Shown here piece by piece: positions 4,343 through 63,721 of a stretch of DNA of 64,000 nucleotides. The DNA is from a virus. Both the position numbers and the translations under genes were made by a program. Below the pieces are notes generated by a model that searched no databases, was not told where the DNA came from, and saw nothing but the letters and a program-made list of their open reading frames with translations. Location: IMG/VR virus record IMGVR_UViG_3300035695_000001, positions 32,001 to 96,000 of that record; one strand, written 5' to 3'. Numbering within the stretch: position 1 is the stretch's first letter; every line of letters begins with the position of its first letter.

Positions 4343-4584
4343 GCAAGCGCCTCCACGACCATCGGTCGGTGGCGATGGCCGGCGGGATGATCCTCCTCGA
4401 CCAGGACGAGTTGCGCCGAGCCCCCATCGAGGGCCTGGTCAGGCTCGCCCAGTTCATGGGCCTCCGAGTCCACGGGTCGAAGGCCATGCCTGGCGCGTAC
4501 CGGCACGCTCTCGTCCAAGCGATCATGCGCGAGGAAAAACGGCTGGCCCGAGCACCGAAGGCCAAGCGGCACGACACTGTCTAA
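4339..4584 (+). CDS. hypothetical protein
   Basis: ATGA-coupled ORF. Confidence 0.55.
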   Translation: MSKRLHDHRSVAMAGGMILLDQDELRRAPIEGLVRLAQFMGLRVHGSKAMPGAYRHALVQAIMREEKRLARAPKAKRHDTV

Positions 4585-4608
4585 CAGTGCTGGGCCGTGC
4601 TAGACAGT
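4576..4608. promoter_or_regulatory. ACTGTCTA(A)CA-N11-TGCTAGACAGT inverted element
   Basis: Copy of the recurrent motif, just upstream of the 4629 ATG. Confidence 0.7.
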
Positions 4609-10610: not shown

Positions 10611-13145
10611 TCAGGCGGGCTTGTAGAGGTCGTTGAGGAGGGCCATGTAGGCTTGGTAGCGCTTGTCCGCCATCTGCCTCGATGCCACGGTTGGCCACTC
10701 GCCTCCGTAGTCGACGCTGGCCTTCTCCAGCGGCTTGAGGAGCGCCCACGCTTCGGCCAGTGCCTTGCCTCGGGCCTCCCCCATCTCTTGCGGAGCGTCC
10801 GGATTGGCGGCCAGGAACGCCGGCATGCGCCTGGCGATGTCCCGGCCAGGCATTCCGCTGGCCTTGTACTCGGCCTGCCATGTCGGGTCGTTCTGGATCC
10901 CACCGACAGGTTTGAACTCCCACACGACTTCGTGCCCCTTGGGCGCTGGCAGCGATGCCGTCTCCCGGTCGTCCGTCGCCTCGATGACTCGATCGCCTTC
11001 GGTCCACGCGACGACGGCGCTCACCATGGGCTTCTCGGTCTCCCACGTCACTGATGCCACGATGCCGCCGGTCGGATCCCCGTGCTTGGCGTGCCACCGG
11101 GAGACCCTCGCAGACGTCTTGCCCAGGATGGGGTGGACGAAGTCGCCCAACTTGCCGTCCATGATCTCGGCCTTGAACGACTCCCAGTAATCGGGGAACC
11201 AGCGGGCGAACCCCTTGGGCGGGATCGCGACGTGCGAGTTGAGGAAGGCGCACTCCACAGTCCAGGAAGCGCACTTCCCTGGCTGCACGGTCGTGTCGAC
11301 GATGGTGCCGAGGAGCGGCTTCCCGCGCCAGGACATCGCAGGCACCGCCTCACGGACCTGGCGCTCCTGCTCCAGGCGGGCGCCGGTGACGGCGGCATCC
11401 TCCTCGTCCGAGAACCGGGCCGGGTCCCCCTCAAACATGGCAGAGAGGCCGGTGATCTTGCCGTCCTCCGAGACGACCAGAGGTCCCGTCACGAGGTGGC
11501 ATTTCCCCTCGCACGAGGCACCGTTGCTGAGTTTCACGATGCGGTAGTCGAGCATCTCGGCGTTGAGGAACGCCTGGTCCAACGAAAAGCCGTGGCCGTC
11601 GATGGGGGCGATGTCGACGTGTTCCTTGACCTCGATCCTGCGCACGGTCGCGCCTCCTGGCGTGGTCCTGGCGAGGCAGGTGGACAGGTGAACGTTGTTC
11701 ACGCGGAGACCACCACCACCTTGGGCGGGCGAGAACAGTTCCAGGAAGAAGCGCTCGCTGAGGTTGGCGCTCGGAAACTTGGGTTCATCGGCCTGCGCCT
11801 TGGCAGCGGTTGCGAGGATGGTGTCCTCGGCCGGCGCAGAGACCGGGACGGCGATGGGCTCTGGTCGCTGGGCATGGCCCTCGACGAGTTGTGGCACGTA
11901 GGCCCGCACCTGCGCGCTGAACTCCCAAGGCATGGTGATGTTCCCGCCAGGCTTGACCTCGACGTCGATCCACGGTCGGCGGTCCGGCGCCCTGAAGAGC
12001 CTGAAGGTCACCGTGGTGTCGGTCGGATTGTGCCAGGTGCTCAGCCCACTCCGATAGAGGAGCGGGCTGGAAGGCGGCTCGGACCGGCATGGTACGACGG
12101 GCGCCGGGACGGTCTCGAAGGTCCTCGGGCACAGATGCGTGAGCGCGAGCGGGCCGCCGACGATGTCTCGGAGGATGACGTGCTGGCTCGGGTCGCGGAC
12201 CCGCATGGCGAACGTGACGTGGATGGTCACGCGGAACTGGCCGGAGACGACCCACGATTCCGGGTCCCTGTCGCCGATGCGCTGCGGCACGCCGTCGAAG
12301 ACTGCCACGCTGCACACGATCGAGCCGGACGGCGCGCTGACGCTGTACGGCTGGACGATCTCGACGCCAGCCGGGTTGATGATGGCGACGACGTCGTCGG
12401 GGCAGGACGTAGACGTAGCGCACTGGTAGCCACCGGAACGGTCTTCGACGTCGGTTCCATCGGCGAATGCCGACGCGGGCAACCCCTTGCCGATCTGGTA
12501 GCGCTCCGCGGTCCCCTTGCTGGCGACGATGAGGTAAGGGCGGCCCACGGTCCTGGCGACCGACGTCTGGTCCTTTGCAGCCTCGACGAGACCCGCCGTG
12601 AGCGCACGCCGCTGGCCGCCGTTCCCCATCGCGGTCCCGGCCCATTCACGGTAGGTGCTCCGACTGATCCCGGCGTAGGCACCGCCAGGCTCGATGGCAC
12701 CGCCGAACAGGCCGACCGCCGTCACGTTGCCTTTGTCGTCGACCCCGTACCCAGTGAGCACCTGGGCTTCGATCTTCTCGGCCATCGCCCTGAGCGCCGC
12801 CGTGACAGTTTCGCGGAAGATGGCCTCCATGACGGCGGGCGCATAGCCAGAAGCCTTTGCCTTCAGCGCGTCGGGAACAGAGACCGTAATGGGCTCGCTG
12901 CGAACCTGCGCGAAGCAGAGGGCCGCAGGGACGGTGGGGTTGAAGGCGTACGCCGAGGACCAGGACATGGTCGGGAAGACGACGTCCCAGTGGCAGTTCT
13001 TCCCAGACTCTTGGACGATGGGAAGCGCGGCGAGCAGGCTGTCGCTTCCGAGCAGGTGGCCGCTCAGGCTCCACTTGAAGGAGTCTGACAGGGCCGAGGC
13101 GAGCGCGATGGCGTCGTCGGTCGTAATCTCGTTCGTGGTATCCAT
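10611..13145 (-). CDS. multidomain chimera of structural-protein paralogues (MCP + post-MCP protein + tail tube + DNA-circularisation N-domain)
   Basis: Shared motifs with genes in this window: YAGISRSTY.W.G (MCP), W.N.TD.TV.F.LF (41597 gene), AQGGGG.R.NNV...FEGDPA (tube), VEC.FLN...G.ARWFP.YWE.FK...VHP.LG (28121 gene). Confidence 0.9.
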   Translation of the reverse strand: MDTTNEITTDDAIALASALSDSFKWSLSGHLLGSDSLLAALPIVQESGKNCHWDVVFPTMSWSSAYAFNPTVPAALCFAQVRSEPITVSVPDALKAKASGYAPAVMEAIFRETVTAALRAMAEKIEAQVLTGYGVDDKGNVTAVGLFGGAIEPGGAYAGISRSTYREWAGTAMGNGGQRRALTAGLVEAAKDQTSVARTVGRPYLIVASKGTAERYQIGKGLPASAFADGTDVEDRSGGYQCATSTSCPDDVVAIINPAGVEIVQPYSVSAPSGSIVCSVAVFDGVPQRIGDRDPESWVVSGQFRVTIHVTFAMRVRDPSQHVILRDIVGGPLALTHLCPRTFETVPAPVVPCRSEPPSSPLLYRSGLSTWHNPTDTTVTFRLFRAPDRRPWIDVEVKPGGNITMPWEFSAQVRAYVPQLVEGHAQRPEPIAVPVSAPAEDTILATAAKAQADEPKFPSANLSERFFLELFSPAQGGGGLRVNNVHLSTCLARTTPGGATVRRIEVKEHVDIAPIDGHGFSLDQAFLNAEMLDYRIVKLSNGASCEGKCHLVTGPLVVSEDGKITGLSAMFEGDPARFSDEEDAAVTGARLEQERQVREAVPAMSWRGKPLLGTIVDTTVQPGKCASWTVECAFLNSHVAIPPKGFARWFPDYWESFKAEIMDGKLGDFVHPILGKTSARVSRWHAKHGDPTGGIVASVTWETEKPMVSAVVAWTEGDRVIEATDDRETASLPAPKGHEVVWEFKPVGGIQNDPTWQAEYKASGMPGRDIARRMPAFLAANPDAPQEMGEARGKALAEAWALLKPLEKASVDYGGEWPTVASRQMADKRYQAYMALLNDLYKPA

Positions 13146-13242: not shown

Positions 13243-13279
13243 ACTGTCTAGCAGTGCCGCCCGGGTCGTGCTAGACACT
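13243..13279. promoter_or_regulatory. ACTGTCTAGCA-N15-TGCTAGACACT element in divergent intergenic region
   Basis: Inverted motif between the 844-aa gene and the HicB-like gene. Confidence 0.75.
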
Positions 13280-13324
13280 GGTTCGGAGGACGGATGGCGC
13301 TGCTACAGCGCTCGGAGGTAAGCC

Positions 13325-13708
13325 ATGGCAGAAGACGACCCCATCGTGGACCCGTACGACGCGCCGCCGGACAGCGAGCCGGTGACGGAAGAAGACCTCG
13401 CGCGCATTGCTGGAACTAGGTTGGCGATCGAGCGCGGCGAGACCATCTCGACCGAGGAATTGCAACGTCGACTGGATGCTGAGTTCCACGTCCGCTTGAC
13501 GGTCAAGTTCGACCGAGAGGAAGACGGGCGCTGGATCGGCGACGTGCCTGAGTTCCATGGTTGCCACGTCTACGGTGCCAACAGAAACGAGGCGCGCGTC
13601 AAGGTCAAGGCGCTGGCCCTCCGCGTCCTCGCCGACCGCATGGAGCACGGGGAGGCCGCGGCCCCAGAAACGATCACGTTCACGACCGAAGGGAACGACG
13701 AGGAATGA
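13325..13708 (+). CDS. HicB-like antitoxin (orphan) with N-terminal addiction-module-like helix
   Basis: DREEDGRWIGDVPEFHGCHVYGANRNEA...ALRVLADRMEHGE matches the HicB N-domain pattern; no adjacent HicA. Confidence 0.75.
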   Translation: MAEDDPIVDPYDAPPDSEPVTEEDLARIAGTRLAIERGETISTEELQRRLDAEFHVRLTVKFDREEDGRWIGDVPEFHGCHVYGANRNEARVKVKALALRVLADRMEHGEAAAPETITFTTEGNDEE

Positions 13709-28120: not shown

Positions 28121-29077
28121 TCAGGCCGCCGTGTAGTAGGTGATGGCCTTGTACTTCGGCACCTGGACGAATGGGATCAACTGCGGGTTGAGCCCGAGGA
28201 TGTCGTCGAAGGTGTTGCCCACCGAGTTTGCAAACGCGGCCAGGGTGGTAGGTGTGTCGATGGTCCTGCTCGCGGTTGGCCGGTTGGCCAGGCCGATCTG
28301 CGTCTGGGCGCCCTGGATGTAGGAGAAGAACGCCCAGACGGCCGACAGCGCCTGGGACGCCTGACAGGCGTCGAGCGACGTCAGGATCTCAGCCATCGCG
28401 ATGACGTCACCGATGAGCGCCAGGATCTGCGCCAGCGTCGTGAATGACAGCGAGAAGACGCCGCCCGAGATGGCCGCCCAGATCGACGAGAGAGAGATGC
28501 TCGCGCCCGTCGGCATCCCGTACATGCCCCACGTTTGCTGGGGCAGCCTCCCAGGCCCAGGGAAGACACCGAACTCGGCGCACGCTGCATCGGCAGCGCT
28601 CGCCAATGTGGCTGGGTTGCCGGCGAGCACGTCGCCGAAGAAGGCGATGGTGCTCGGATCCTCGTTGGTCAACTCCCAGGTGATGGTCACCGTGATGCCG
28701 CTCAGGCTCTCGGTGGTGATGGTCGTCGACCCGTCCGCCACGACGGCGCGAACCGACCCAAGGAGCGGGTGGACGAGATCCCCGGGGTTGCCGTCGAGCA
28801 CCTGGGTCTTGAAGACCTCCCAGTATTCTGGGAACCAGCGCGCGTACCCCAGCGGTGGCGCTTGCGTCTGCGTGTTCAGGAAGCGGCACTCGACCTTGAA
28901 CGGCTTGACGTCCATCCCGGTCCAGTCGTGGCCGGCGATGTCGACATAGGGGTACTCACGCTTCGCCTGACGGTGCGTCCATTCGAGCGGGAAGGCGTGG
29001 TACGGCGGGAGCAAGAGCCCGCGCCAAGACGGCGCGGAGAGCCCTTGGATGATGGTGCTGTCGCCGGTCGCCATCAC
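28121..29077 (-). CDS. DNA-circularisation protein (Mu gp43/gpN-like) with LysM-like C-terminus
   Basis: PSWRG, REYPYVD, GDLVHPLLG; C-terminal TL...A......DI..LNP. Confidence 0.85.
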   Translation of the reverse strand: MMATGDSTIIQGLSAPSWRGLLLPPYHAFPLEWTHRQAKREYPYVDIAGHDWTGMDVKPFKVECRFLNTQTQAPPLGYARWFPEYWEVFKTQVLDGNPGDLVHPLLGSVRAVVADGSTTITTESLSGITVTITWELTNEDPSTIAFFGDVLAGNPATLASAADAACAEFGVFPGPGRLPQQTWGMYGMPTGASISLSSIWAAISGGVFSLSFTTLAQILALIGDVIAMAEILTSLDACQASQALSAVWAFFSYIQGAQTQIGLANRPTASRTIDTPTTLAAFANSVGNTFDDILGLNPQLIPFVQVPKYKAITYYTAA

Positions 29078-31245
29078 TTCCCCGGAGTCGCGCCAGAGAA
29101 GACGCTGCCGCCACTGCCGTGGTTGGCTCGATCGACGATCGTGCCCAGCGTAGCGATGTGACGGCCGATTGCATCGGCTGCGGCGTGTTGCTTGTCGGCT
29201 GCGGCGTGTTGCTTGTCGGCTGCGGCGTGTTGCTTGTCGGCTGTTGGACTCCCAGTAGCCGGCGTAGTACCAGGCGCTGCTGTGGTCGTATGGTCACCTG
29301 ACCCACCGAGCCCGCCACCCTCGTCGTAAGCCGCTAGGGCTTGCTTGTGCTCCTTGAGCTTGGCGTACATCGCCATCAACTCGACTTGGGTCCGGCCCTT
29401 GGATTGCTCGCCTGAGTCAAGGGCAGCCTCCTCCTCGCCGACGTAGAATCTGGAAGCGTCAACGATTCGCTTCTTGAGCAGCCTCCGCTTGACCGAAGTC
29501 TCCTTGGACTCGCCAGGCTTCTCCTCGCCGAGCGCTGCGTACTGCGAGAGCGCCTCCTGACGCTCTTGCGCGTACGTCGCCATGGCGTTTGTATGCTCGC
29601 CGCCGCTGACCAGGTGTAGCGCTTGCAGGAATGCGACGACGCCACGGACGGCCGTACCGAGGAGACCCACGGAGCCAGCGAGCGCCTCCCACAGCCCCTT
29701 GTTTGCTCCGATCTCTTTCATGAACCCGGTCAGCGTTGGGACCATCTCCTTGCCCACCGCCTGGACCAGGCTCTGCCAGGCGGCTTCCATCTGGGCTCCG
29801 CCCGTCGCTTGGACCGTGTTCACGTCCTGGAGCAGGTCCTTGTAGTCGCCCGACGCGGCGGCCAGTTCATCGAACTTGGCCTTGACCGCGGATGCCCCGG
29901 CGGCGGCCTTCTCCTTCTCGGTCCCCTGTGTTGAGGCATACGCCTTATTGAAGGCGTCGAGCATTGGCGTCATCACGGCGCCTGGCTGACCCCTGCCGCC
30001 ACCGCCGAAGATTTTGTCGAGCGCGAGCTTCATCGGGACCGCGTTGGTCTCGTCCCCCTTGACGGTGTTCTGGGCGCGGGCCTTCACGAACATCTCCGCC
30101 ATGATGTCTTGGATCGGACGGATCTTTGCCTGCCCGTGCTCGTCCTTCTCGGTCGAGTAGACGTCGAGTCCTAGACCACCCTTCCCGGTCCCCTTTAGTT
30201 TCGTGGCCTGGCTCGTGAGTTTGGACATGAACATGCCCACAGCCTGGCCTGAACGCTCCGGGTCTCCACCCTCGCCCGCCGCACCGAGGAGCGCGTTCAT
30301 GCCGCGAACGCCGAGCCGCTCGATGTCGTAACCTGCACCCTTTGCACGCCCTGATGCCAACTGGAGTTGTGACGCCGCCTGCTCGAACGAGACGCCGCCA
30401 ACCTTCGCACGAGCAGCAACTGCGGCCAGAGCGTCGCCCATCTCGTTGACGTCCTTGATCTTGAACTCGCGGTGGAGTTTGCCCGCGAGCGCCCCGATCT
30501 CCTCCGTCCCCTTCCCGGTCGCCTGCGACACCTTGGCGATGACGTCGGCGTACTTCCGCGCGTCGGGGAGACTCCCGCTCTTCTCACGGAAAGCCCCTAC
30601 GCCGGCTGCCACGTCCTCGGCCTTCATGCCAGGGTTGGCGATGGCGGTCTCCTCGAACTCCCGACGGAGCGCGGAGACGTTGGTCAACTTTTCTCCTGGA
30701 CGGCGCGCGTCGATGGCAATGCGACGGGCGATCCCCTGGAGTTTCATCGACTCGCGGACGGCTCCGCTGATGCCGTCGATGACCTTGCCGCTGAGTCCAG
30801 AGAGGCTGGTCATCCAGCCGGCGCCGAGGTCGCTGATGAGCCGCTTCCCGATCCCTCCTAGGAGGTTCGGCACGACCATGGCAATGCGACGGGCCGAAGC
30901 CACCGCGGCGTCTTCGACCTTCTTGATCGATGCTTCCTGAGCCGCGGCGGCCTTCTTCGCCTCGTCCTCCCGGATCTTCGCGACCGCCTTGGCATCTGCC
31001 ATGGCTTTCTTCGCAGCATCAGAAGACGCCTTGGCCGTAGCGCGCTCCTGTGCCGCCATCTCGGCCGTGACGTTGCGCGAGACGCCTAGCCTGGCGTTCA
31101 TCGCCTTGCGCCACTCGGCGTCGGCACGTTCCTGTGCAGCCTGCTGAGCGGCTTGCGCTCGCACGCCGTCCTCGCCCAGCGTGGCGATGGCCTTCTTCAG
31201 TTCGGCGTCGCCGATCTTGCTGAACTGCCAGACGACTTCGGGCAT
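29074..31245 (-). CDS. tape measure protein
   Basis: 723-aa Ala/Gly-rich helical protein after the chaperones. Confidence 0.85.
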   Translation of the reverse strand: MPEVVWQFSKIGDAELKKAIATLGEDGVRAQAAQQAAQERADAEWRKAMNARLGVSRNVTAEMAAQERATAKASSDAAKKAMADAKAVAKIREDEAKKAAAAQEASIKKVEDAAVASARRIAMVVPNLLGGIGKRLISDLGAGWMTSLSGLSGKVIDGISGAVRESMKLQGIARRIAIDARRPGEKLTNVSALRREFEETAIANPGMKAEDVAAGVGAFREKSGSLPDARKYADVIAKVSQATGKGTEEIGALAGKLHREFKIKDVNEMGDALAAVAARAKVGGVSFEQAASQLQLASGRAKGAGYDIERLGVRGMNALLGAAGEGGDPERSGQAVGMFMSKLTSQATKLKGTGKGGLGLDVYSTEKDEHGQAKIRPIQDIMAEMFVKARAQNTVKGDETNAVPMKLALDKIFGGGGRGQPGAVMTPMLDAFNKAYASTQGTEKEKAAAGASAVKAKFDELAAASGDYKDLLQDVNTVQATGGAQMEAAWQSLVQAVGKEMVPTLTGFMKEIGANKGLWEALAGSVGLLGTAVRGVVAFLQALHLVSGGEHTNAMATYAQERQEALSQYAALGEEKPGESKETSVKRRLLKKRIVDASRFYVGEEEAALDSGEQSKGRTQVELMAMYAKLKEHKQALAAYDEGGGLGGSGDHTTTAAPGTTPATGSPTADKQHAAADKQHAAADKQHAAADAIGRHIATLGTIVDRANHGSGGSVFSGATPGK
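29174..29243. repeat. 21-bp tandem repeat x3.3 (ADKQHAA) in tape-measure C-terminus
   Basis: TCGGCTGCGGCGTGTTGCTTG in three exact copies plus a partial. Confidence 0.95.
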
Positions 31246-31642: not shown

Positions 31643-32377
31643 TTACTCCGCGGCGGGCTCCGGCCTGGCAGCCAGCGCCGCTTCCAGTTCTGCGATCCGC
31701 ACTCGCGCAGCAGCCAGCGCAGACTCCGCTGCCTCTCGGTCGGCAACGAACGCCGGGAGCGCTGCCTGTGCGTCCACGACCTCCTGCCTGGCGCTTGTGA
31801 GTTTTGCGGCCATGAGCGACGCGATGAGGATCGTCTCGCTCATGCTCCTTGGAGCGAACAGGATCTTGGGGATGTCGGTCCCGATGTTGCTGGCCAGGGC
31901 CGGCGCCATCTTCTCGACGATCTCGTCGGCGCTCTCCACCGTGAGGGCCGGAGCGAGCGCCATCTCCTCCTTCGTCAGCCGGTACATGTTGTGGAGCGCC
32001 AGCCAGTTGTCGTCCGTCAGGCGCGACCGCATCGCGTCCGGGTTTTGGAACACCTGGCCACCCGGGGTACCGTCCGGCTTGACGTACCGCACGGCCAGAC
32101 AGAGCGCTTCCAACGTCTCGGCCGAAACGCGGAGCCTGTCGTCGGCGCGTACGATCTCGGCGGCCTCCGCGTGCTTGGCCTTCTTGGAGAGGGCGACACG
32201 GCGGTCCGCCGCGAACACCAGTACGTCGTCGTCCTCTGCCGGGTTGAGCAGGACGATGGCCACGTTGAGCACCTGGTGCCCAGGCGCCCTGTAGAAGCCG
32301 TCGATGGGCCAGACCTTGAACTTGCGCGGCTGCTCGTCGATCAGTCTGAGGATGTCGATGGTCTGCTCTTGGCTCAT
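31643..32377 (-). CDS. tail assembly chaperone
   Basis: Position between tube and tape measure; F.N...M...L..D....L...Y. Confidence 0.6.
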   Translation of the reverse strand: MSQEQTIDILRLIDEQPRKFKVWPIDGFYRAPGHQVLNVAIVLLNPAEDDDVLVFAADRRVALSKKAKHAEAAEIVRADDRLRVSAETLEALCLAVRYVKPDGTPGGQVFQNPDAMRSRLTDDNWLALHNMYRLTKEEMALAPALTVESADEIVEKMAPALASNIGTDIPKILFAPRSMSETILIASLMAAKLTSARQEVVDAQAALPAFVADREAAESALAAARVRIAELEAALAARPEPAAE

Positions 32378-32991: not shown

Positions 32992-33393
32992 TCACTGGAA
33001 CAGAGCCGGGTCGCCCTCGAAGTCCGCGGAGAACTCCGTGATCGCCCCGTCCGCCGTCGTGACCTTCGGACCCGTGGTGATGTGGCACTGCCCCGAAGCC
33101 GCGGCCCCGTCGCTGTACCGCTGGATCTGGTAGTCGAGGATCTCGGAATTGGCGAACGCCAGTTCCAGGTCGAGCCCGTTGGCCAGAAACTGGAAGTCCA
33201 TGTGGTCGACGATGTTGAACTTCCTGGTGGTCGATCCAGCCGTCGTCCCCATGTAGTTGCGGAGCGGGGAGCGCAGCGTCTCGCGCTTCCCGTCCAGTGA
33301 CGTGTCGAACTTGACGTTGTTGGCGCGGATCCCTCCGCCACCCTGGGCAAGGGACCAGATGGACACGAAGTACAGTTCACCCAAACCTGCCAT
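32992..33393 (-). CDS. tail tube protein
   Basis: 133-aa beta-rich protein directly after sheath, GGAG RBS, ends FEG. Confidence 0.8.
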   Translation of the reverse strand: MAGLGELYFVSIWSLAQGGGGIRANNVKFDTSLDGKRETLRSPLRNYMGTTAGSTTRKFNIVDHMDFQFLANGLDLELAFANSEILDYQIQRYSDGAAASGQCHITTGPKVTTADGAITEFSADFEGDPALFQ

Positions 33394-33424: not shown

Positions 33425-35665
33425 TCAGCTCGGGTCGCTGGTCTCGTTGATCAGCGTCTGCTGCCAGTTGTTGTGGCGCGCGACCCTGAGCGCGACGCCG
33501 AGGCTCCACCCGCCCTGCTGAAGAATCGTGGTGTCGGTGGCCGCCTTCATGTCCTTCAGGTAGGTCGGGTCGAGCAGTGGCTTCCCGTTCTGGTACTGAC
33601 CGCACATCTGCGTGATGAGCAGGTTCGCGGCCGAGTCCACCATGAACGGGTAGACCTGCCCAGGGATGGGCTTCACGCCAGAGGCGGGGTTCGCCTGGAT
33701 GTTGCCCTTGTTGAGGCCACGCGCCTTGCAGATGGCCGCGAAGGCAGCCCACCACTCGATCATCACCGAGCCGATGTGGCCCTCCCTCGCCCGGTAGTCC
33801 TCCGTGGTCGTAGGGCTCCCCGGGGGCAGCCAGGAGTAGCTGGCGATGTCCCGGCGGATGAAGGCCGCGCCGGACCCGTCGTAGGTCACGTCACAGCACC
33901 CCCCGTTGAGCAGGGTGACCTCGTCGGTCTGGGACCAGACGTTGGACAGGAGGTACGGCGTCGGGAAGGGGCAGACAGTGCCGAGGTTGGAGTCCGTGGT
34001 GTAGCCGGTCAGGTTCACCGCGGCGTAGACACTCTGCTCCTTGCTCAGGATCCCGGTGTACGCCGCGGCGCGCATGCTCGGGGGCCAGTCATTGGCGGTG
34101 GCCGGGATGACCTTGAAGAAGGTGCTGTTGACCACGCTGGCCTGGGCGACCGATGCGGACTGCGTCGAGGTGCCGTCGACCCCGCAGATCCCGAACTGGC
34201 TCTTGCCGACGGTGGGGGTGAGGCTCTGCGAGATGTAGGCGCTGTACTGGCCGACACCACCGTCGCTCGCGTTGCCACCGCTCGTCGCCGTGCAGGCAAT
34301 GGCGTGGTAGGTGAACTCCCTCGCCGAGACTGCGGTGATCGCGTTCGCGCAGGAGTCCGCACCCGCCCCGTTGACGGTCGAACCGGCCGAGATCGTGGTG
34401 GCGTTGGTCGGGTTGTCGTAGCTGAGCCGGACCTGGTCGAGCCAGTAGTTGGAGCGCGCCCCCAGTTGGTAGGTAGTGAGGGTGATCGTCGAGGCGCCGC
34501 CCGACGCCGCCCCGTTGTGCTCGGAGGTGTCCCAGCCGGCCACCTTGGCGACGACCGACCCGGAGGTGAACTGGACCCCCTTGGCCGTCGCGCCTGCCGT
34601 GTTGGTCGCCCACGTCACGCTGTTGTTGGCGTTCGCGGTGCCCGTCGAGCCGGCCGTGCCGCCGGTGAAGGTGCTCGTCAGGAGGCCAGCCATCTGCGAC
34701 GCCGTCACCTGAGCGACGTTGGGCACGTTCCCGGTGCCGTTCGTCAGCGCTCCGACCGAGAGGCCGAGCGACGTCAGCACGTCCGCGGAGCCGGCCACGA
34801 CCGCGCCCACCGCGGCGCTCCCGAGCTGGTTGCTGGTGAGTTGCGTCTGCCCTCCGTTGTTGAGGGCCACGCCGCCCGTGAGCCCGCCAGGGAGGGCGCT
34901 GTTGATCTTGGCGTGGAAGGCCGCCTGCGTTGCCTCCGACCCGGAGAACGTGACCACCGTCTGCGTCCCCATGAACGACAGGGTCAGCGTGTGGCTGGCG
35001 GTGACCGCTGCGTACGTCGCGCCTGAGCCGGTGACCGTCGCCGCCGCGGCCGAGATGGTGAGGGTCTGCGCGCCTGCCTCGTCCACCTTGCCGACCAGGG
35101 TGTCCCCGTTGACCAGGGCCACGGGGAAGGCGTTGGCGCTGCTGGTCTCGGAGCCGTTGGTGGCCGCGCTCCCGCTCATCGCCGAGAAGGGGAGGTCCGG
35201 GTCGGCGTTGATGGTGTCGACGAGGTTGGAGACCTGGGTGCTCGGCGAGTCGCCCGCTGCGACCGTGATGCCCATCCTGGACTTGCCGGGGACGTTGACG
35301 GCGCAGGAGTCGATGTAGAGGTCGCAGCCGACACTGGCGTTCGTCGCGAGGGTCCAGGTGCGCGTGCTCGCAGTCGCGCCGCCCGCCTGCGCCATCGCCA
35401 CGATCGTCACGAGGACGTTGGGGTCGATGATGCGCAGCGCGCGGTGCATCCACGCGGCCTCGGACCTGGAGCCGTAGCGGGTGTTGCAGTCGGCCTGGGA
35501 CTTGACCGGCGAGCCCAGCGTCTCGACGCTCTCCGTCCCGGCGGCGAGCATGTTGGCGATGATGACGACGTTGCGGGAGGTCCCGTTCGCCGTGCTCCCG
35601 CCCTGCGCGGGCTTGAAGTCACGTTCGGAACTTGGAATGGGCCACGAGGCCGGGGGGAAGCTCAT
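33425..35665 (-). CDS. tail sheath protein (Mu gpL-like) with inserted domains
   Basis: V.IIANM..AGT, YG.RSE...M, LL..G...V.YD.SG...I.R.I; large contractile-tail gene. Confidence 0.9.
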   Translation of the reverse strand: MSFPPASWPIPSSERDFKPAQGGSTANGTSRNVVIIANMLAAGTESVETLGSPVKSQADCNTRYGSRSEAAWMHRALRIIDPNVLVTIVAMAQAGGATASTRTWTLATNASVGCDLYIDSCAVNVPGKSRMGITVAAGDSPSTQVSNLVDTINADPDLPFSAMSGSAATNGSETSSANAFPVALVNGDTLVGKVDEAGAQTLTISAAAATVTGSGATYAAVTASHTLTLSFMGTQTVVTFSGSEATQAAFHAKINSALPGGLTGGVALNNGGQTQLTSNQLGSAAVGAVVAGSADVLTSLGLSVGALTNGTGNVPNVAQVTASQMAGLLTSTFTGGTAGSTGTANANNSVTWATNTAGATAKGVQFTSGSVVAKVAGWDTSEHNGAASGGASTITLTTYQLGARSNYWLDQVRLSYDNPTNATTISAGSTVNGAGADSCANAITAVSAREFTYHAIACTATSGGNASDGGVGQYSAYISQSLTPTVGKSQFGICGVDGTSTQSASVAQASVVNSTFFKVIPATANDWPPSMRAAAYTGILSKEQSVYAAVNLTGYTTDSNLGTVCPFPTPYLLSNVWSQTDEVTLLNGGCCDVTYDGSGAAFIRRDIASYSWLPPGSPTTTEDYRAREGHIGSVMIEWWAAFAAICKARGLNKGNIQANPASGVKPIPGQVYPFMVDSAANLLITQMCGQYQNGKPLLDPTYLKDMKAATDTTILQQGGWSLGVALRVARHNNWQQTLINETSDPS

Positions 35666-35666
35666 C

Positions 35667-36308
35667 TCAGCTCTCCTCGGCAGCGTGCGCCGCCGGCTGT
35701 GGGTTGGTCGCCCGAGACTTGACCCACTTCGTGAGCCCGTGGACGAGGCTGCTGTGCGGGTCGACCCCGGCGGGCGCCGACTTGTCGAAGAAGACGGGGT
35801 GGCCGTTCTCGTTCGGGTGCTCGATGACCAGTCCCTCCTCACGGAGGGTGGCCAGCGCTTCGCCGAGGGCCTGTCCGCTGAGCCCGAGGCCGGTCAGGGT
35901 GTGCGTGACCTGTGCGGGGACATTGGCGGCGCGCCAGGCGACGTACTGTGCCTCCGCTCTGGCAGCGTCCTGCGCCTGCTTCGCCTCCGCCTGCGCCTTG
36001 AATGCAGCCTCGGCGCTCTCCTGGTCCGGGGCGTCGACCTCGGCGAGGATCGCCAGCGTCTTGCCCGCCTCCTTGCGGAGGTTGGCGTGGTCGGCGATGA
36101 CCTGCTCACGCGGGATGAAGCCGGCCGCCTTGTGGGGGTGCGTCGGGGTCGAGTGCCGACCCATCACCGGCTCGGGGCGGGGAGGAGCAGCCTTGACGCC
36201 GACGGGTCGGACCCGCGGCGGGTTGGACGTGGCCAGGTGTGGGTCGAGCACGAGGTGGACGTGGCCCGAACCCTCCTGCGGGAGGGCGGTGACGAGCAGG
36301 AAGCGCAT
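35667..36308 (-). CDS. hypothetical protein upstream of sheath
   Basis: GAGAGG RBS before MRFLLV. Confidence 0.7.
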   Translation of the reverse strand: MRFLLVTALPQEGSGHVHLVLDPHLATSNPPRVRPVGVKAAPPRPEPVMGRHSTPTHPHKAAGFIPREQVIADHANLRKEAGKTLAILAEVDAPDQESAEAAFKAQAEAKQAQDAARAEAQYVAWRAANVPAQVTHTLTGLGLSGQALGEALATLREEGLVIEHPNENGHPVFFDKSAPAGVDPHSSLVHGLTKWVKSRATNPQPAAHAAEES

Positions 36309-38861: not shown

Positions 38862-40946
<2,085 letters not shown>

Positions 40947-41375: not shown

Positions 41376-41600
41376 CTACTCCTCGGCGGGTTGTGGGGCC
41401 TTCTCCGGAGCCGTGAACTCGGGGCACTTGCAGCCGGCCACCGTGCAGCGGCCCGTCCGCATGGCGTGCTTGGCCTGCGTGTGCTTGCACCCGACCGGAT
41501 GCCGGCACTTGGTTCGCGGGTGGACGACGGGGACCACCGACGGAGCCGCATGCTCATCGGCCCGCGCCGTGGTGGGCTGAGGCTCTGCCGGCTCGGTCAG
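41376..41600 (-). CDS. small zinc-finger protein (start uncertain)
   Basis: C....C.H....H.....C....C.C..F. Confidence 0.5.
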   Translation of the reverse strand: MTEPAEPQPTTARADEHAAPSVVPVVHPRTKCRHPVGCKHTQAKHAMRTGRCTVAGCKCPEFTAPEKAPQPAEE

Positions 41601-42301
41601 CCGGCCTCGGCTTTTGGGGCCTCCGCCTCCGCCTTGGCCTTGACGAGCGCCGCTTCCAGTTCGCGGATGCGCCGCTCGGAGGCGTCCTTCTCGGCGTCCT
41701 TGGCGGCGACCTTGGCGGCGAGTTCCTTGGCCTCGGCGTCCTGCCTGTCCATGCGGGCCTGGATGGCGGCCAGAGCGTCGAGGCTCACCGGCTCGCCGAC
41801 GACGCCGTGCCCCTTCAACTTGGCCTCGGCGACGCCCTGCTCGTGGGAGCGGACGAGCGAGAAGTGGACGTCGGGGGGGGGCGCCCCCATCTTGACCAGC
41901 AGCGGCGCGTGGCCGCCGATCACGATGCCCGTGCGGTCCGTCGTCTGGATGGCGCGGTCGTACTCGGAGGACAGCGCGACCGACTCCCCAGGCTTGATCT
42001 CGACGTGCTGCCACGCCGTCTTGGCTGGCCCAGGCCCCTTGAAGAGCTTGAACTTGACGGTCTGGTCGGTCGTGTTCTTCCAGACGGTCGTGCCCACGGC
42101 GGTCACGCCACCGGACACGCGGAGTTGCTCGTTGCTGGCCCGGAGGCGGTCGTTCTCGGCCCGAAGCCGTTGCAGTTCGTCGGTGTACTCGGACATGGTC
42201 GTACCTGGTTCTGGGAGAAAGGTGGCCGCGTCGACCGCAGCGAGGCTGGCTCGCGCCGCCTCGCCCATGGCCTCCGCGATCTTGAGCAGTTCAGGGCGCA
42301 C
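41597..42301 (-). CDS. post-MCP head-associated protein (alternative start 42196)
   Basis: Directly after MCP; beta domain W.NTTD..V.FKLF plus coiled coil. Confidence 0.7.
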   Translation of the reverse strand: MRPELLKIAEAMGEAARASLAAVDAATFLPEPGTTMSEYTDELQRLRAENDRLRASNEQLRVSGGVTAVGTTVWKNTTDQTVKFKLFKGPGPAKTAWQHVEIKPGESVALSSEYDRAIQTTDRTGIVIGGHAPLLVKMGAPPPDVHFSLVRSHEQGVAEAKLKGHGVVGEPVSLDALAAIQARMDRQDAEAKELAAKVAAKDAEKDASERRIRELEAALVKAKAEAEAPKAEAG

Positions 42302-42307
42302 GCGACA

Positions 42308-43372
42308 TCACGAGGGGGAGATGTCGGCGATGTACCCGTTGGCGTTGGGGTGCTCGACGCGAAGCTGGACGCGGACCCACACGTTGATGGGGTACGAATC
42401 GCCGTTCTTCGGGAGCACCTCGACGCGGAGTTGGAGGTTGACGGGCTGCTGGGTGTCGCCCGGCCCGAGGCCGGTGCCGCCGAACGCGGTCATGTCCTCG
42501 CCGAGCGTCTCGAACATCTCGGGGATGGCGCGGGGCAGGGCCTGAAGCTCGATCGTGTCGTTGTTGAGCATGATGAGCTTGTCGGCCGGGCAGGAGATGT
42601 CCGGCTCCAGCGGGATGTTGTTCCAGAAGAGCTTCTGGGTGCCGGCGCCGAACTGCTGCGGCATCTCGCCCGCGGTCTGCACGCGCTGGATCGGCGTGAA
42701 GAGGCTCTGGTACTTGGAGTGGACGGCGTACGAGCAGAGGATCCGGGTGGGCTCGCGGCCGGAGTTGGTCAGGATCTGCTGGTAGAGGGCCTGGAGCAGC
42801 GCCAGCGTGAGGGGGCGCGGGGTGCCGCCGTTGCTGAGCACGTTGCCGGCCCAGCCGGGGTAGGTGGAGCGGGAGATCCCGGCGTAGCTGCCGGACAGTT
42901 CCAGCGCGCCACCGAGCACACCGATCAGGTTCTGGTTGCCGTTCCCGTCGGTGCCGGTGCCGGTGTAGAAGTCGTCGTTGATGAGCTTGATCAGCCGGGA
43001 GATGGCGCCGCCGATCTTGGCGTCGAAGAGCCGCATCAGGATGTCGGGAGACCCGGGGCTCGTGGCCGCGGCGTCGACCGCGAGTCCCTCGATCTTGGTC
43101 GGGGCGCGGTAGTTGGCCCAGGCCAGGGTCGCCGGCACGTCGGGGTCGTAGGTGAACTCCGAGGAGCTCACGTCCGAACCCGGCGCGAACGCGGCGGCCG
43201 GGGTCTCGGTGGTGGGGAACTCCGCGTCCCACGGCACGTTCTTGCCAGCCCCATCCACGATCTTGACGCCTTGGAGGGCGACGACCTTGCGGTTCCACTG
43301 GAACGCGAGGACACGGTTGAAGAGCTGGCTGAGCGCCGGGCTCAGAACGGACAGGGTGTCGATGTTGGACAT
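42308..43372 (-). CDS. major capsid protein (HK97 fold)
   Basis: 354 aa after scaffold, GGAG RBS; D.Y.G.G, YAGISRS.Y..W, L.V.HPNA.G.I.DI. Confidence 0.9.
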   Translation of the reverse strand: MSNIDTLSVLSPALSQLFNRVLAFQWNRKVVALQGVKIVDGAGKNVPWDAEFPTTETPAAAFAPGSDVSSSEFTYDPDVPATLAWANYRAPTKIEGLAVDAAATSPGSPDILMRLFDAKIGGAISRLIKLINDDFYTGTGTDGNGNQNLIGVLGGALELSGSYAGISRSTYPGWAGNVLSNGGTPRPLTLALLQALYQQILTNSGREPTRILCSYAVHSKYQSLFTPIQRVQTAGEMPQQFGAGTQKLFWNNIPLEPDISCPADKLIMLNNDTIELQALPRAIPEMFETLGEDMTAFGGTGLGPGDTQQPVNLQLRVEVLPKNGDSYPINVWVRVQLRVEHPNANGYIADISPS

Positions 43373-49604: not shown

Positions 49605-49706
49605 GGCTAGCACGGGCTGTCTAGCACGGGTGCAGGAACGCAACGATGGGCGCCCGTCGGTTGCTCAGACGCCACTGTCTAGCAGCGGCCGGTGGTGCTA
49701 GACAGT
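49605..49706. promoter_or_regulatory. cluster of CTAGCA sites plus ACTGTCTAGCA-N11-TGCTAGACAGT
   Basis: Sites at 49605, 49617, 49674 and 49696 in a divergent intergenic region. Confidence 0.75.
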
Positions 49707-56796: not shown

Positions 56797-57111
56797 TCAG
56801 CCGCCGATCTCCGTAACCGTGACGTCTTCGATCCACCCAGGCTGTGGGTTGAACGGAGCGGTGATGCAGACACGCATCGTGGCGAAGTCGATGTGGGCCT
56901 CGACGCCCTGGTCAGGCCAGGCGTTGGCCACCTCGACGGCGAGTCGGCTGGGCGTCAGCGTGTCGGCCTCGGGCTCACGCTCACCAGGCGCAGGGTCTGG
57001 CGCGTAGCGCTTGTATTTCGACAGGAAGACGTGAGCCTCGCCACGCATCCGCTCGAAGTGGCCTTGCGCGGCAAGGGTGTGCATCAGCGCTGCCTGTGCC
57101 ACGGGCCTCAC
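56797..57111 (-). CDS. hypothetical protein
   Basis: GGAGG RBS, GTGA overlap. Confidence 0.6.
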   Translation of the reverse strand: MRPVAQAALMHTLAAQGHFERMRGEAHVFLSKYKRYAPDPAPGEREPEADTLTPSRLAVEVANAWPDQGVEAHIDFATMRVCITAPFNPQPGWIEDVTVTEIGG

Positions 57112-57749
57112 GTCGCCTCCTCCGCCTTCGGCGCCTCGATGACGATGGCCGGCGCCCACCCGAAGTGGCAGGTCCGCCAGTCGGGCCCGTAGGCTTCCGC
57201 GGCGGCCATGGCGTAGCCGTCCAGGTAGTCGCGGCGCTGGTCCTCGGGAACGTACTCGGGCGCGACCAGGGCCGTGGCGCGGGCAGCGAGCCCACCCGCC
57301 GAACCGAAGGGGTTGTGCTCACAGGCGTCGAGCGCGCAGTTGGTGGCGCCCCAGTTGTACGGCTCGGGGGGAGGGTCCTGCCAGGTGACCTTGGTCTTGC
57401 CGCCATGGCCGTGGATGCAGACCACCTCGGCCATGCTGTCGTAGATGGCGACCGACGAGTGCTTGGTCAGCCAGGACAGTGCGACCCTGCCGTTGGAGAA
57501 GCGGATCCCCTCGGCGACCCGGCCGGTACCTGAGACCCCGCTCTCGTCGTCGGAGCGGTCGAGCCAGAACCGGATCGTGGTGGGGGCGCTCTGGGTGGCG
57601 ACTTCGAGGAAGCGCTCCGCGGCCTGCTTCTCGCCCGCGTCCTGGATCTTGAACTCGTAGACGATCTCTCGCGGCCGGATCTGATCGCGCGGGTTGGCTG
57701 GCTCGACTGGGGGCGGCGGAATGGTGCTGGGAGGGTGGGGGGCGTCCAT
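57108..57749 (-). CDS. conserved phage hypothetical protein
   Basis: R..D.SGVSGTG.VAEG..FS.G.V...W......HGHGG.T motif. Confidence 0.75.
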   Translation of the reverse strand: MDAPHPPSTIPPPPVEPANPRDQIRPREIVYEFKIQDAGEKQAAERFLEVATQSAPTTIRFWLDRSDDESGVSGTGRVAEGIRFSNGRVALSWLTKHSSVAIYDSMAEVVCIHGHGGKTKVTWQDPPPEPYNWGATNCALDACEHNPFGSAGGLAARATALVAPEYVPEDQRRDYLDGYAMAAAEAYGPDWRTCHFGWAPAIVIEAPKAEEAT

Positions 57750-57757
57750 GCGCCAGA

Positions 57758-57780
57758 GTCTAGCACCTCGGTGTCTAGCA
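57758..57780 (-). promoter_or_regulatory. tandem TGCTAGAC sites; putative leaderless extended -10
   Basis: Minus strand reads TGCTAGACT-CTGGCGC-ATG(57749). Confidence 0.6.
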
Positions 57781-58639: not shown

Positions 58640-58669
58640 GTCTAGCAGTACCGACGCCTGCTAGACAGT
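58640..58669. promoter_or_regulatory. GTCTAGCA-N11-TGCTAGACAGT element
   Basis: Minus strand reads TGCTAGACT-CACGGG-ATG(58632). Confidence 0.75.
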
Positions 58670-62851: not shown

Positions 62852-62889
62852 ACTGTCTAGCACAAGGTCGTCCGGTTGTGCTAGACAGT
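62852..62889. promoter_or_regulatory. ACTGTCTAGCA-N16-TGCTAGACAGT element, divergent region
   Basis: Perfect inverted arms. Confidence 0.8.
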
Positions 62890-62958
62890 GGACCGAGAGA
62901 GCGGGCCGGCACCGGCGAGAAGGGTCGCCAGCACCAGGCCCGACGTGGAGTCTACCTC

Positions 62959-63334: not shown

Positions 63335-63673
63335 ATGGCGACCAACATCCCGGCAGGCGCAGAGGTGACGCTCACGATCCGGCTGACCGTGGGCCCATGG
63401 ACCCCATGCGACGAGGGCTACGAGCGGCGGTGGTCCGGTCCGGTCGCCAAGGACGGTTCCCAGCCCGCGGCTGCCCGCGTGACGAAGAAGGCGATGCCGT
63501 GGCCGTTCAAGCCGCGGTGGGAGTGGAGCGCTGGCGATCCCTACAGCGATGAGTGGATCGAGGAAGGCGAGACGAAGGGTGCCGGTCCTGATGACGCGAT
63601 GGCTGTGGCCGACGCCGCCCTCAAGCAGATCGTGGCCGACATCGAAGGCGAGCCGCCCACGGCGCCTGTCTAG
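63335..63673 (+). CDS. hypothetical protein
   Basis: GAGG RBS; follows upstream stop. Confidence 0.7.
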   Translation: MATNIPAGAEVTLTIRLTVGPWTPCDEGYERRWSGPVAKDGSQPAAARVTKKAMPWPFKPRWEWSAGDPYSDEWIEEGETKGAGPDDAMAVADAALKQIVADIEGEPPTAPV

Positions 63674-63721
63674 CACCCGCCAGCACTGTCTAGCACTGGC
63701 CCCCCAGGTCTGCTAGACAGT
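63666..63721. promoter_or_regulatory. three-site cluster CTGTCTAGCA / ACTGTCTAGCA-N15-TGCTAGACAGT
   Basis: Immediately upstream of ATG 63728. Confidence 0.8.

Follow-up and report, generated by a model that had tools for sequence, protein, structure and literature searches.

The 64-kb window analysed here, the whole stretch from position 32,001 to 96,000 of IMG/VR record IMGVR_UViG_3300035695_000001, is part of the complete genome (162.8 kb, 68% GC) of a large soil phage recovered from rhizosphere metagenomes. Two of its ORFs consist of diverged copies of the phage's virion proteins: an 844-residue chimera, in which copies of several structural proteins are fused, and a stand-alone 285-residue paralogue of the major capsid protein (MCP) (Table 1). 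An assembly loop is missing from all four of the MCP- or tube-type domains in these copies. Judging from their sequences, the description of the copies as folded but non-assembling subunits under selection is well supported. By analogy with known phage proteins, their likeliest role would be as decoys for factors that bind free virion subunits, a reading to which we give a probability of about 45%.

The true structural genes form a minus-strand myophage block comprising terminase, portal, a scaffold-like gene, MCP, sheath, tube, tape measure and a DNA_circ_N protein. Domains of the chimera follow one another as in this operon and are 33% (MCP), 34% (the gene after MCP), 42% (tube) and 46% (DNA_circ_N protein) identical to their counterparts. 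The post-MCP portion is missing its coiled-coil flanks and has no large internal deletion. The two MCP copies sit 14 and 29 kb from the MCP, outside the head operon that follows portal and scaffold. The reading frame of the chimera is open for 844 codons across three fusion points, and GC content at third codon positions (GC3) is 0.86 for the chimera and 0.90 for the stand-alone copy, as in real genes. Recent duplication of the phage's own genes was rejected as their origin, with identities of 30-48% and no grouping with the phage's own MCP. An assembly artefact was also rejected: contigs from two further sequencing runs bridge the E-loop and tube deletions of the chimera with zero differences.

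Between the conserved capsid anchors, the original prediction counted 28 residues in the MCP, 16 in the chimera and 9 in the stand-alone copy, and these numbers were exact on recount; the interval it gave, 11409-13145, does not include the stand-alone copy. The wider segment between W48 and A81 is 28-36 residues long in 100 of 104 homologues and 28-35 residues long in all 15 further MCPs from other loci, compared with 13 and 20 residues in the two copies, both of which have also lost the G65/D67 motif. The 14-residue loss claimed for the tube copy was likewise found: the chimera has two residues where the true tube has residues 34-49 (33247-33294), and the other indels of the domain are of 1-2 residues. 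These lost residues are the most conserved part of the tube family, with 9 of 16 positions invariant in five true tubes versus 25 of 116 elsewhere (p=0.006). To the three deletions of the original prediction we add a fourth, in the DNA_circ_N domain of the chimera, where 21 residues stand in place of the 40-42 found in the parent and six clear homologues; 20 residues of the family's conserved motif are lost.

Structure models place the deleted capsid and tube segments on assembly loops, as had been proposed from position only. The MCP model (predicted local distance difference test score, pLDDT, 74; predicted template modelling score, pTM, 0.75) has an HK97 fold and is closest to the capsids of A-1(L) (7F38) and Mic1 (6J3Q), with E ~1e-13. 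The shortened segment is flanked by strands 46-49 and 80-83 and precedes the long strand of the P-domain and the spine helix. This position, between the two E-loop stem strands, identifies it as the HK97 E-loop, which makes long-range contacts between subunits (bioRxiv 10.1101/2022.09.09.507160).

The true tube is modelled with a tail-tube fold (template modelling, TM, score 0.72 to PF06199 tube clusters); the tube family had no sequence match in PDB. A four-copy model of the tube scored 0.47, with 0.02 for the best control. Among proteins of known structure, 20 of 30 solved as one-chain pairs score this high, as does 1 of 23 solved singly; these counts apply only roughly here. Runs agree in at least 80% of contacts and partner pLDDT is at least 73, although resemblance to solved tubes may account for the high score. 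Of the 16 replaced tube residues, 11 lie on the 27-residue donor face of the modelled oligomer, with the acceptor face elsewhere. The lost segment is thus at a modelled subunit interface, as the claim of a deleted polymerisation hairpin predicts; since about 29% of all 16-residue tube windows contain as many interface residues, the overlap alone is modest evidence. Deletion of the loop halts tube growth in T5 and SPP1 (PMC8718954) and in P74-26 (Loop1; PMC10034513). In SPP1 its removal blocks ring-to-ring growth, and YSD1 is left with hexameric rings (PMC8718954).

The parent of the fourth domain matches the Mu DNA circularisation protein N (PDB 9KI1), PF07157 and phrog_184. A profile comparison of the tube family with DNA_circ_N was not significant. 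From its position, and given that Mu gpN has a tube-like N-domain, the motif lost in this domain may be a tube-type hairpin. A tube-like N-domain has been described for Pam3 gp17 (PMC9942802).

The original prediction held that the assembly loops were specifically lost. This is true of the tube and DNA_circ_N domains, in which the loop is the sole large loss, but not of the capsid copies, in which more has gone. The stand-alone copy is also short by ~23 residues in one stretch of the A-domain and by ~27 in another, having 17 residues at 213-254 and 17 at 279-324 (40 and 44 in the MCP; 32 and 35 in the chimera). In both MCP copies, conservation of the N-arm, E-loop, A-loop and P-loop is at, below or near the 5th percentile. 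Residues 138-190, comprising the G-loop and the link to the A-domain, retain 26 and 25 of 35 consensus positions, where the median for true MCPs is 26; of the remaining 100 consensus positions the copies keep 41 and 37 versus 71 in true MCPs (p=2e-6). The capsid copies therefore combine a general loss of lattice contacts with one strongly kept stretch. They have the sequence and fold homology of the HK97 group and lack both a full-length E-loop and a place in a head operon. The tube copy has a beta-sandwich core that is 48-52% identical to true tubes over ~120 columns, and a branch length of 0.43, like that of true tubes (0.28-0.42). The copies are homologues, not functional members, of their families.

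In the tube copy, 14 residues are cleanly missing from the best-conserved site while the rest of the domain is tube-like in divergence, which would favour an early, selected loss. Such folds can drop few long segments other than protruding hairpins without unfolding, so position alone is no proof of positive selection. Modelling of the chimera with AlphaFold from its single sequence gave a mean pLDDT of 33, too low for use, and folding of the copies is therefore inferred from sequence. The proposal of folded, assembly-incompetent subunits under selection is nevertheless strengthened by the fourth deletion, by the normal conservation of the core and by recurrence in other phages.

A relative with a complete genome, G001, has its intact tube gene at 149.9 kb and, beside the terminase, a separate tube copy (P0064) that lacks the hairpin. 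Four other MCP homologues have short E-loops of 8, 11, 21 and 25 residues. All four lie outside head operons: they follow a small-terminase-like gene, precede a terminase or sit among glycosyltransferase genes, and no scaffold-like gene precedes any of them. Among long loci with ordinary MCPs, 31 of 32 have portal, scaffold or adaptor neighbours, the other being at a contig edge. At least three separate tree positions are required to accommodate the six MCP copies, and zero bootstrap trees unite them; their branches are long and placement is unsure, the join of the two window copies being between long branches and either copy alone being unplaced. Scans of viral contigs for P0115 and P0096 were empty. 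A word-based search with the stand-alone copy recovered only itself, and no second multi-domain chimera was found in viral contigs or among 1.84 billion representatives, each match being to one domain only. Copies P0052 (L123:925-1950) and P0096 (L124:10001-11056), which are ungrouped on the tree, have in common an N-terminal Cys/His motif, CxC..DCDYH, possibly a metal-binding add-on. G001 also contains a 948-residue frame (L112, 51529-54372, minus strand) whose N-terminal domain resembles a degenerate tube (hhalign probability 87%); its middle region has weak matches to ORFs of the present genome and of a partial relative, G002, and it is possibly another mosaic protein.

The copies may be expressed apart from the structural genes. 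An element, TGCTAGAC, occurs 49 times genome-wide (2.9 expected), mostly as inverted pairs, and is absent between 19 and 48.4 kb, the structural block. It precedes both copies. Sites in the window are at 4577-4608, 13243-13280, 17473, 49617-49706, 57758-57780, 58640-58669, 62853-62890 and 63666-63721. Three occurrences read TGnTAnnnT 6-7 nt before an ATG, including those of the stand-alone copy and the gene after it; at these two genes we infer an extended -10 box giving leaderless transcripts from host polymerase. The three occurrences are possibly leaderless promoters with an overlapping operator. A simple sigma-70 scan found no full promoter and no site at either copy, and no RNA dataset is listed as containing the sequence. 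A strong match connects the gene after the stand-alone copy with phrog_7499, a family of unknown function; this gene lies two genes before the large terminase. A HicB-like gene (13325-13708, plus strand) is divergent from the chimera and shares its TGCTAGAC pair.

We suggest that the copies arose from genes for virion proteins within this phage family and have been retained as accessory genes whose products are folded mimics that do not assemble. Loss of the loops would probably have been favoured because it prevents the copies from being built into the capsid and tail of the phage that encodes them. Soluble copies, made from TGCTAGAC-tagged accessory units rather than from the late operon, would occupy host factors that recognise free capsid, tube or baseplate subunits, immune sensors for example, without triggering them, and the 844-residue protein would combine a number of these baits. 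Sensors are known that have MCP, tube or tape measure as their ligands (bioRxiv 10.64898/2026.01.04.697583), and a phage protein, DSAD1, competes with the tube at the sensor DSR2 (PMC11087589). In keeping with the proposal, the gene that follows the stand-alone copy matches the anti-CBASS protein Acb5 (Table 1). Because several interfaces are lost in the MCP copies, exclusion from the lattice fits them better than capping does.

A number of observations weigh against this proposal. Avs16 has been modelled on the tube hairpin and Avs7/8/10 on the A-domain interface (bioRxiv 10.64898/2026.01.04.697583); as the Avs-contacted parts are those lost, the copies may bind these sensors poorly. DSR2 is activated by monomeric tube (PMC11087589), so that a permanent monomer could trigger such a sensor instead of blocking it. 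No sensor or binding partner was identified for the copies. The Acb5 match of the neighbouring gene (Table 1) was precomputed and could not be re-scored, and a single neighbour is weak evidence. The four MCP copies from outside the window were chosen by short loop and likeness to the chimera, which biases their pattern. Neither G001 nor partial G002 has an extra MCP match, and a weak third tube-like domain in G001 retains much of the hairpin length. Finally, contigs with an identical chimera protein are 100% identical in DNA, and the chimera is a singleton, so no ratio of nonsynonymous to synonymous substitutions (dN/dS) could be obtained.

A second explanation, which we regard as unlikely, is that the copies are chain terminators that dock through the acceptor face on growing tubes, baseplates and procapsids of related phages and, offering no loop, stop further growth. 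The acceptor face of the tube copy is free of gaps and identical to the phage's own tube at 14 of 28 positions, within the 12-22 of 28 seen for true foreign tubes, and the donor face has gaps at 9 of 27. The growth arrest of hairpin-deleted SPP1 tubes and the hexameric rings kept by YSD1 (PMC8718954) are consistent with such an activity. The copies are no nearer to their own phage than to its relatives (tube 48% own, 50-52% others), and relatives in Polyangiaceae genome contigs point to resident forms in the family. Assembly-blocking defences are known (PMC10884400, PMC11364771). However, the acceptor face is no better conserved than the rest of the domain, either in this tube copy (14/28 versus 36/77, p=0.83) or in the second hairpin-less copy (9/28 versus 24/77, p=1.0), and the chain-terminating activity put forward in the original prediction thus loses its expected signature. 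The MCP copies lose several interfaces at once, and no antidote gene is evident. The complete genome has no match to a tyrosine integrase (PF00589) or a PF07508 recombinase; there is therefore no support for lysogeny, during which a poison could be carried safely, although a plasmid-like prophage is possible.

The MCP relatives in Polyangiaceae contigs suggest a myxobacterial host. In 401 genomes of the order of a Polyangiaceae metagenome-assembled genome there were 11 MCP matches, one per genome, and 0 tube matches, with no sign there of a host-encoded copy. A Polyangiales chromosome (L170, G213) carries a truncated MCP fragment with its E-loop intact, which runs into an integrase-like remnant beside a tRNA-like sequence; this is a decayed prophage edge.

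Somewhat less probable again is that the copies are relaxed remnants: structural genes, duplicated or captured, that fell out of use in assembly, lost their loops as tolerated changes and have a minor unrelated role or none. The long branches of the MCP copies (1.6-2.0, compared with a median of ~0.5), the patchy distribution, the singleton chimera and a domain order equal to the operon order, as expected if a captured module underwent serial deletion, fit this explanation, and the A-domain stretches lost by the stand-alone copy are variable in the family (standard deviations 5.5 and 4.2) and of low confidence in the model. The open frame and normal GC3 of the chimera, a tube branch and core like those of true tubes with a single large deletion at the most conserved segment, and the strongly uneven conservation of the MCP copies nevertheless argue, at the level of sequence, against decay, as does recurrence in several lineages. 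It is improbable that the copies help the phage's own morphogenesis, as chaperone-like or nucleating subunits or as minor virion parts at the portal vertex or tube ends, because, although three lie near terminase genes (the stand-alone copy, P0064 and P0096), P0052 follows a small-terminase-like gene and co-assembling capsid paralogues are known (Ccm, PMC8569155), relatives differ in which copies they carry and some have none, unlike a core assembly factor, the copies lie outside the late block with the accessory-region element, and Ccm retains its E-loop.

The true MCP and both of its copies belong to the same sequence family (PF17236) and fold as the MCPs of Mic1 (PDB 6J3Q) and A-1(L) (7F38); unlike those proteins, the copies have no E-loop tip, have a degenerate N-arm, A-loop and P-loop, and are encoded outside a head operon. 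The same type of lesion as in the tube copies has been engineered in SPP1 gp17.1, T5 pb6 and YSD1_22 (PMC8718954) and in P74-26 (Loop1, PMC10034513), where it stops tube growth, with the monomer fold retained in SPP1. Those are laboratory mutants of siphophages, whereas the copies described here are natural extra genes of a myophage, one of them in a multi-domain fusion. Ccm of SaPIbov5 (PMC8569155) is likewise a diverged capsid homologue in a mobile-element conflict, but it is encoded by a satellite, has not lost its E-loop and makes up the pentamers of small capsids, while the present copies are phage-encoded and loop-less. The model for decoy activity is DSAD1 (PMC11087589), whose target is proven; the copies here are recognisable paralogues of several virion proteins, known from sequence alone. 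Tab and Tai, which block assembly of rival virions (PMC10884400, PMC11364771), are the model for a poison; the copies have no PADLOC match, and any likeness would be one of function. The copies may work like DSAD1, Ccm or Tab/Tai. In the literature searched, no paper was found that describes natural loop-less virion paralogues or decoys.

Coordinates of the copies, their parental genes and adjacent elements are given in Table 1. Within the C-terminus of the chimera, a 7-residue motif (10911-10931) weakly resembles the N-terminus of the tape measure (shuffle p=0.005, post hoc); comparison of the two with hhalign was not significant. Elsewhere in the structural block, the sheath protein (33425-35842, minus strand) and a 694-residue glycine-rich protein (38862-40946, minus strand) share a ~90-residue domain with 63% identity, as they do in G002, and three exact 21-nt tandem copies are found at 29174-29243, near the 3' end of the tape-measure gene.

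Table 1. Virion-protein copies, parental genes and adjacent elements in the window
Feature	Position	Strand	Evidence or remarks
Chimeric ORF, 844 residues	10611-13145	-	Diverged virion-protein domains in operon order: MCP-like, post-MCP-protein-like, tube-like, DNA_circ_N-like, then C-terminus
Chimera, MCP-like domain, residues 1-331	12153-13145	-	phrog_9953 major head protein; 33% to MCP
Chimera, shortened E-loop, 16 vs 28 residues	12939-12986	-	Alignment; conserved G65/D67 motif gone
Chimera, copy of central beta-rich part of post-MCP protein	11871-12047	-	E 9e-7
Chimera, tail-tube-like domain, residues 460-578	11412-11768	-	48-52% identical to true tubes outside gap
Chimera, site of 14-residue hairpin deletion in tube copy	11661-11684	-	Alignment and model
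Chimera, DNA_circ_N domain (Mu gpN-like, tube-initiator-like), residues 603-704	11034-11339	-	46% to 28121-29077
Chimera, fourth deletion, in DNA_circ_N domain, 21 vs 40-42 residues in homologues	11259-11321	-	Alignment; YPYVD-containing motif removed
Chimera, C-terminus, mostly helical, no assigned family	10611-11033	-	No usable atlas match
Inverted TGCTAGAC pair ~100 nt upstream of chimera, common to divergent HicB-like gene	13243-13280		Element scan
Stand-alone MCP paralogue, 285 residues	57775-58632	-	PHROG major head match; without E-loop tip, A-loop and 283-312 insertion
Stand-alone copy, E-loop remnant, 9 residues	58468-58494	-	Alignment
Inverted TGCTAGAC pair directly upstream of stand-alone copy; TGnTAnnnT 6 nt before its ATG	58640-58669		Element scan
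Gene directly after stand-alone copy; own TGCTAGAC pair at 57758-57780	57108-57749	-	Precomputed Pfam match to Acb5 (PF26761), directed against the cyclic oligonucleotide-based antiphage signalling system (anti-CBASS)
True MCP, after scaffold-like gene; E-loop segment 43145-43228	42308-43372	-	PF17236; PDB 6J3Q and 7F38
Gene directly after MCP, parent of second domain of chimera	41597-42301	-	Sequence match
True tail tube, after sheath gene; hairpin at 33247-33294	32992-33393	-	TM 0.72 to PF06199 tube clusters
True DNA_circ_N / baseplate-hub protein; counterpart of shortened segment of chimera at 28895-29017	28121-29077	-	PF07157, phrog_184, PDB 9KI1

As a tentative generalisation, large phages may repeatedly make assembly-dead mimics of virion proteins by loop removal. 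The chimera would combine three or four of these in one multi-bait protein that blunts several structure-sensing receptors, or that blocks head, tube and baseplate assembly of rivals. Each copy has an intact parent in the same genome, which allows pairwise comparison of binding, polymerisation and sensor activation, and in the capsid copies the strong conservation of residues 138-190 indicates which surface is important. Among the foremost triggers of bacterial immunity are capsid, tube and baseplate proteins, which phages cannot readily alter. If the generalisation is true, natural paralogues without these loops would offer phages a widely usable escape from this difficulty, or else a weapon of general use against their rivals.

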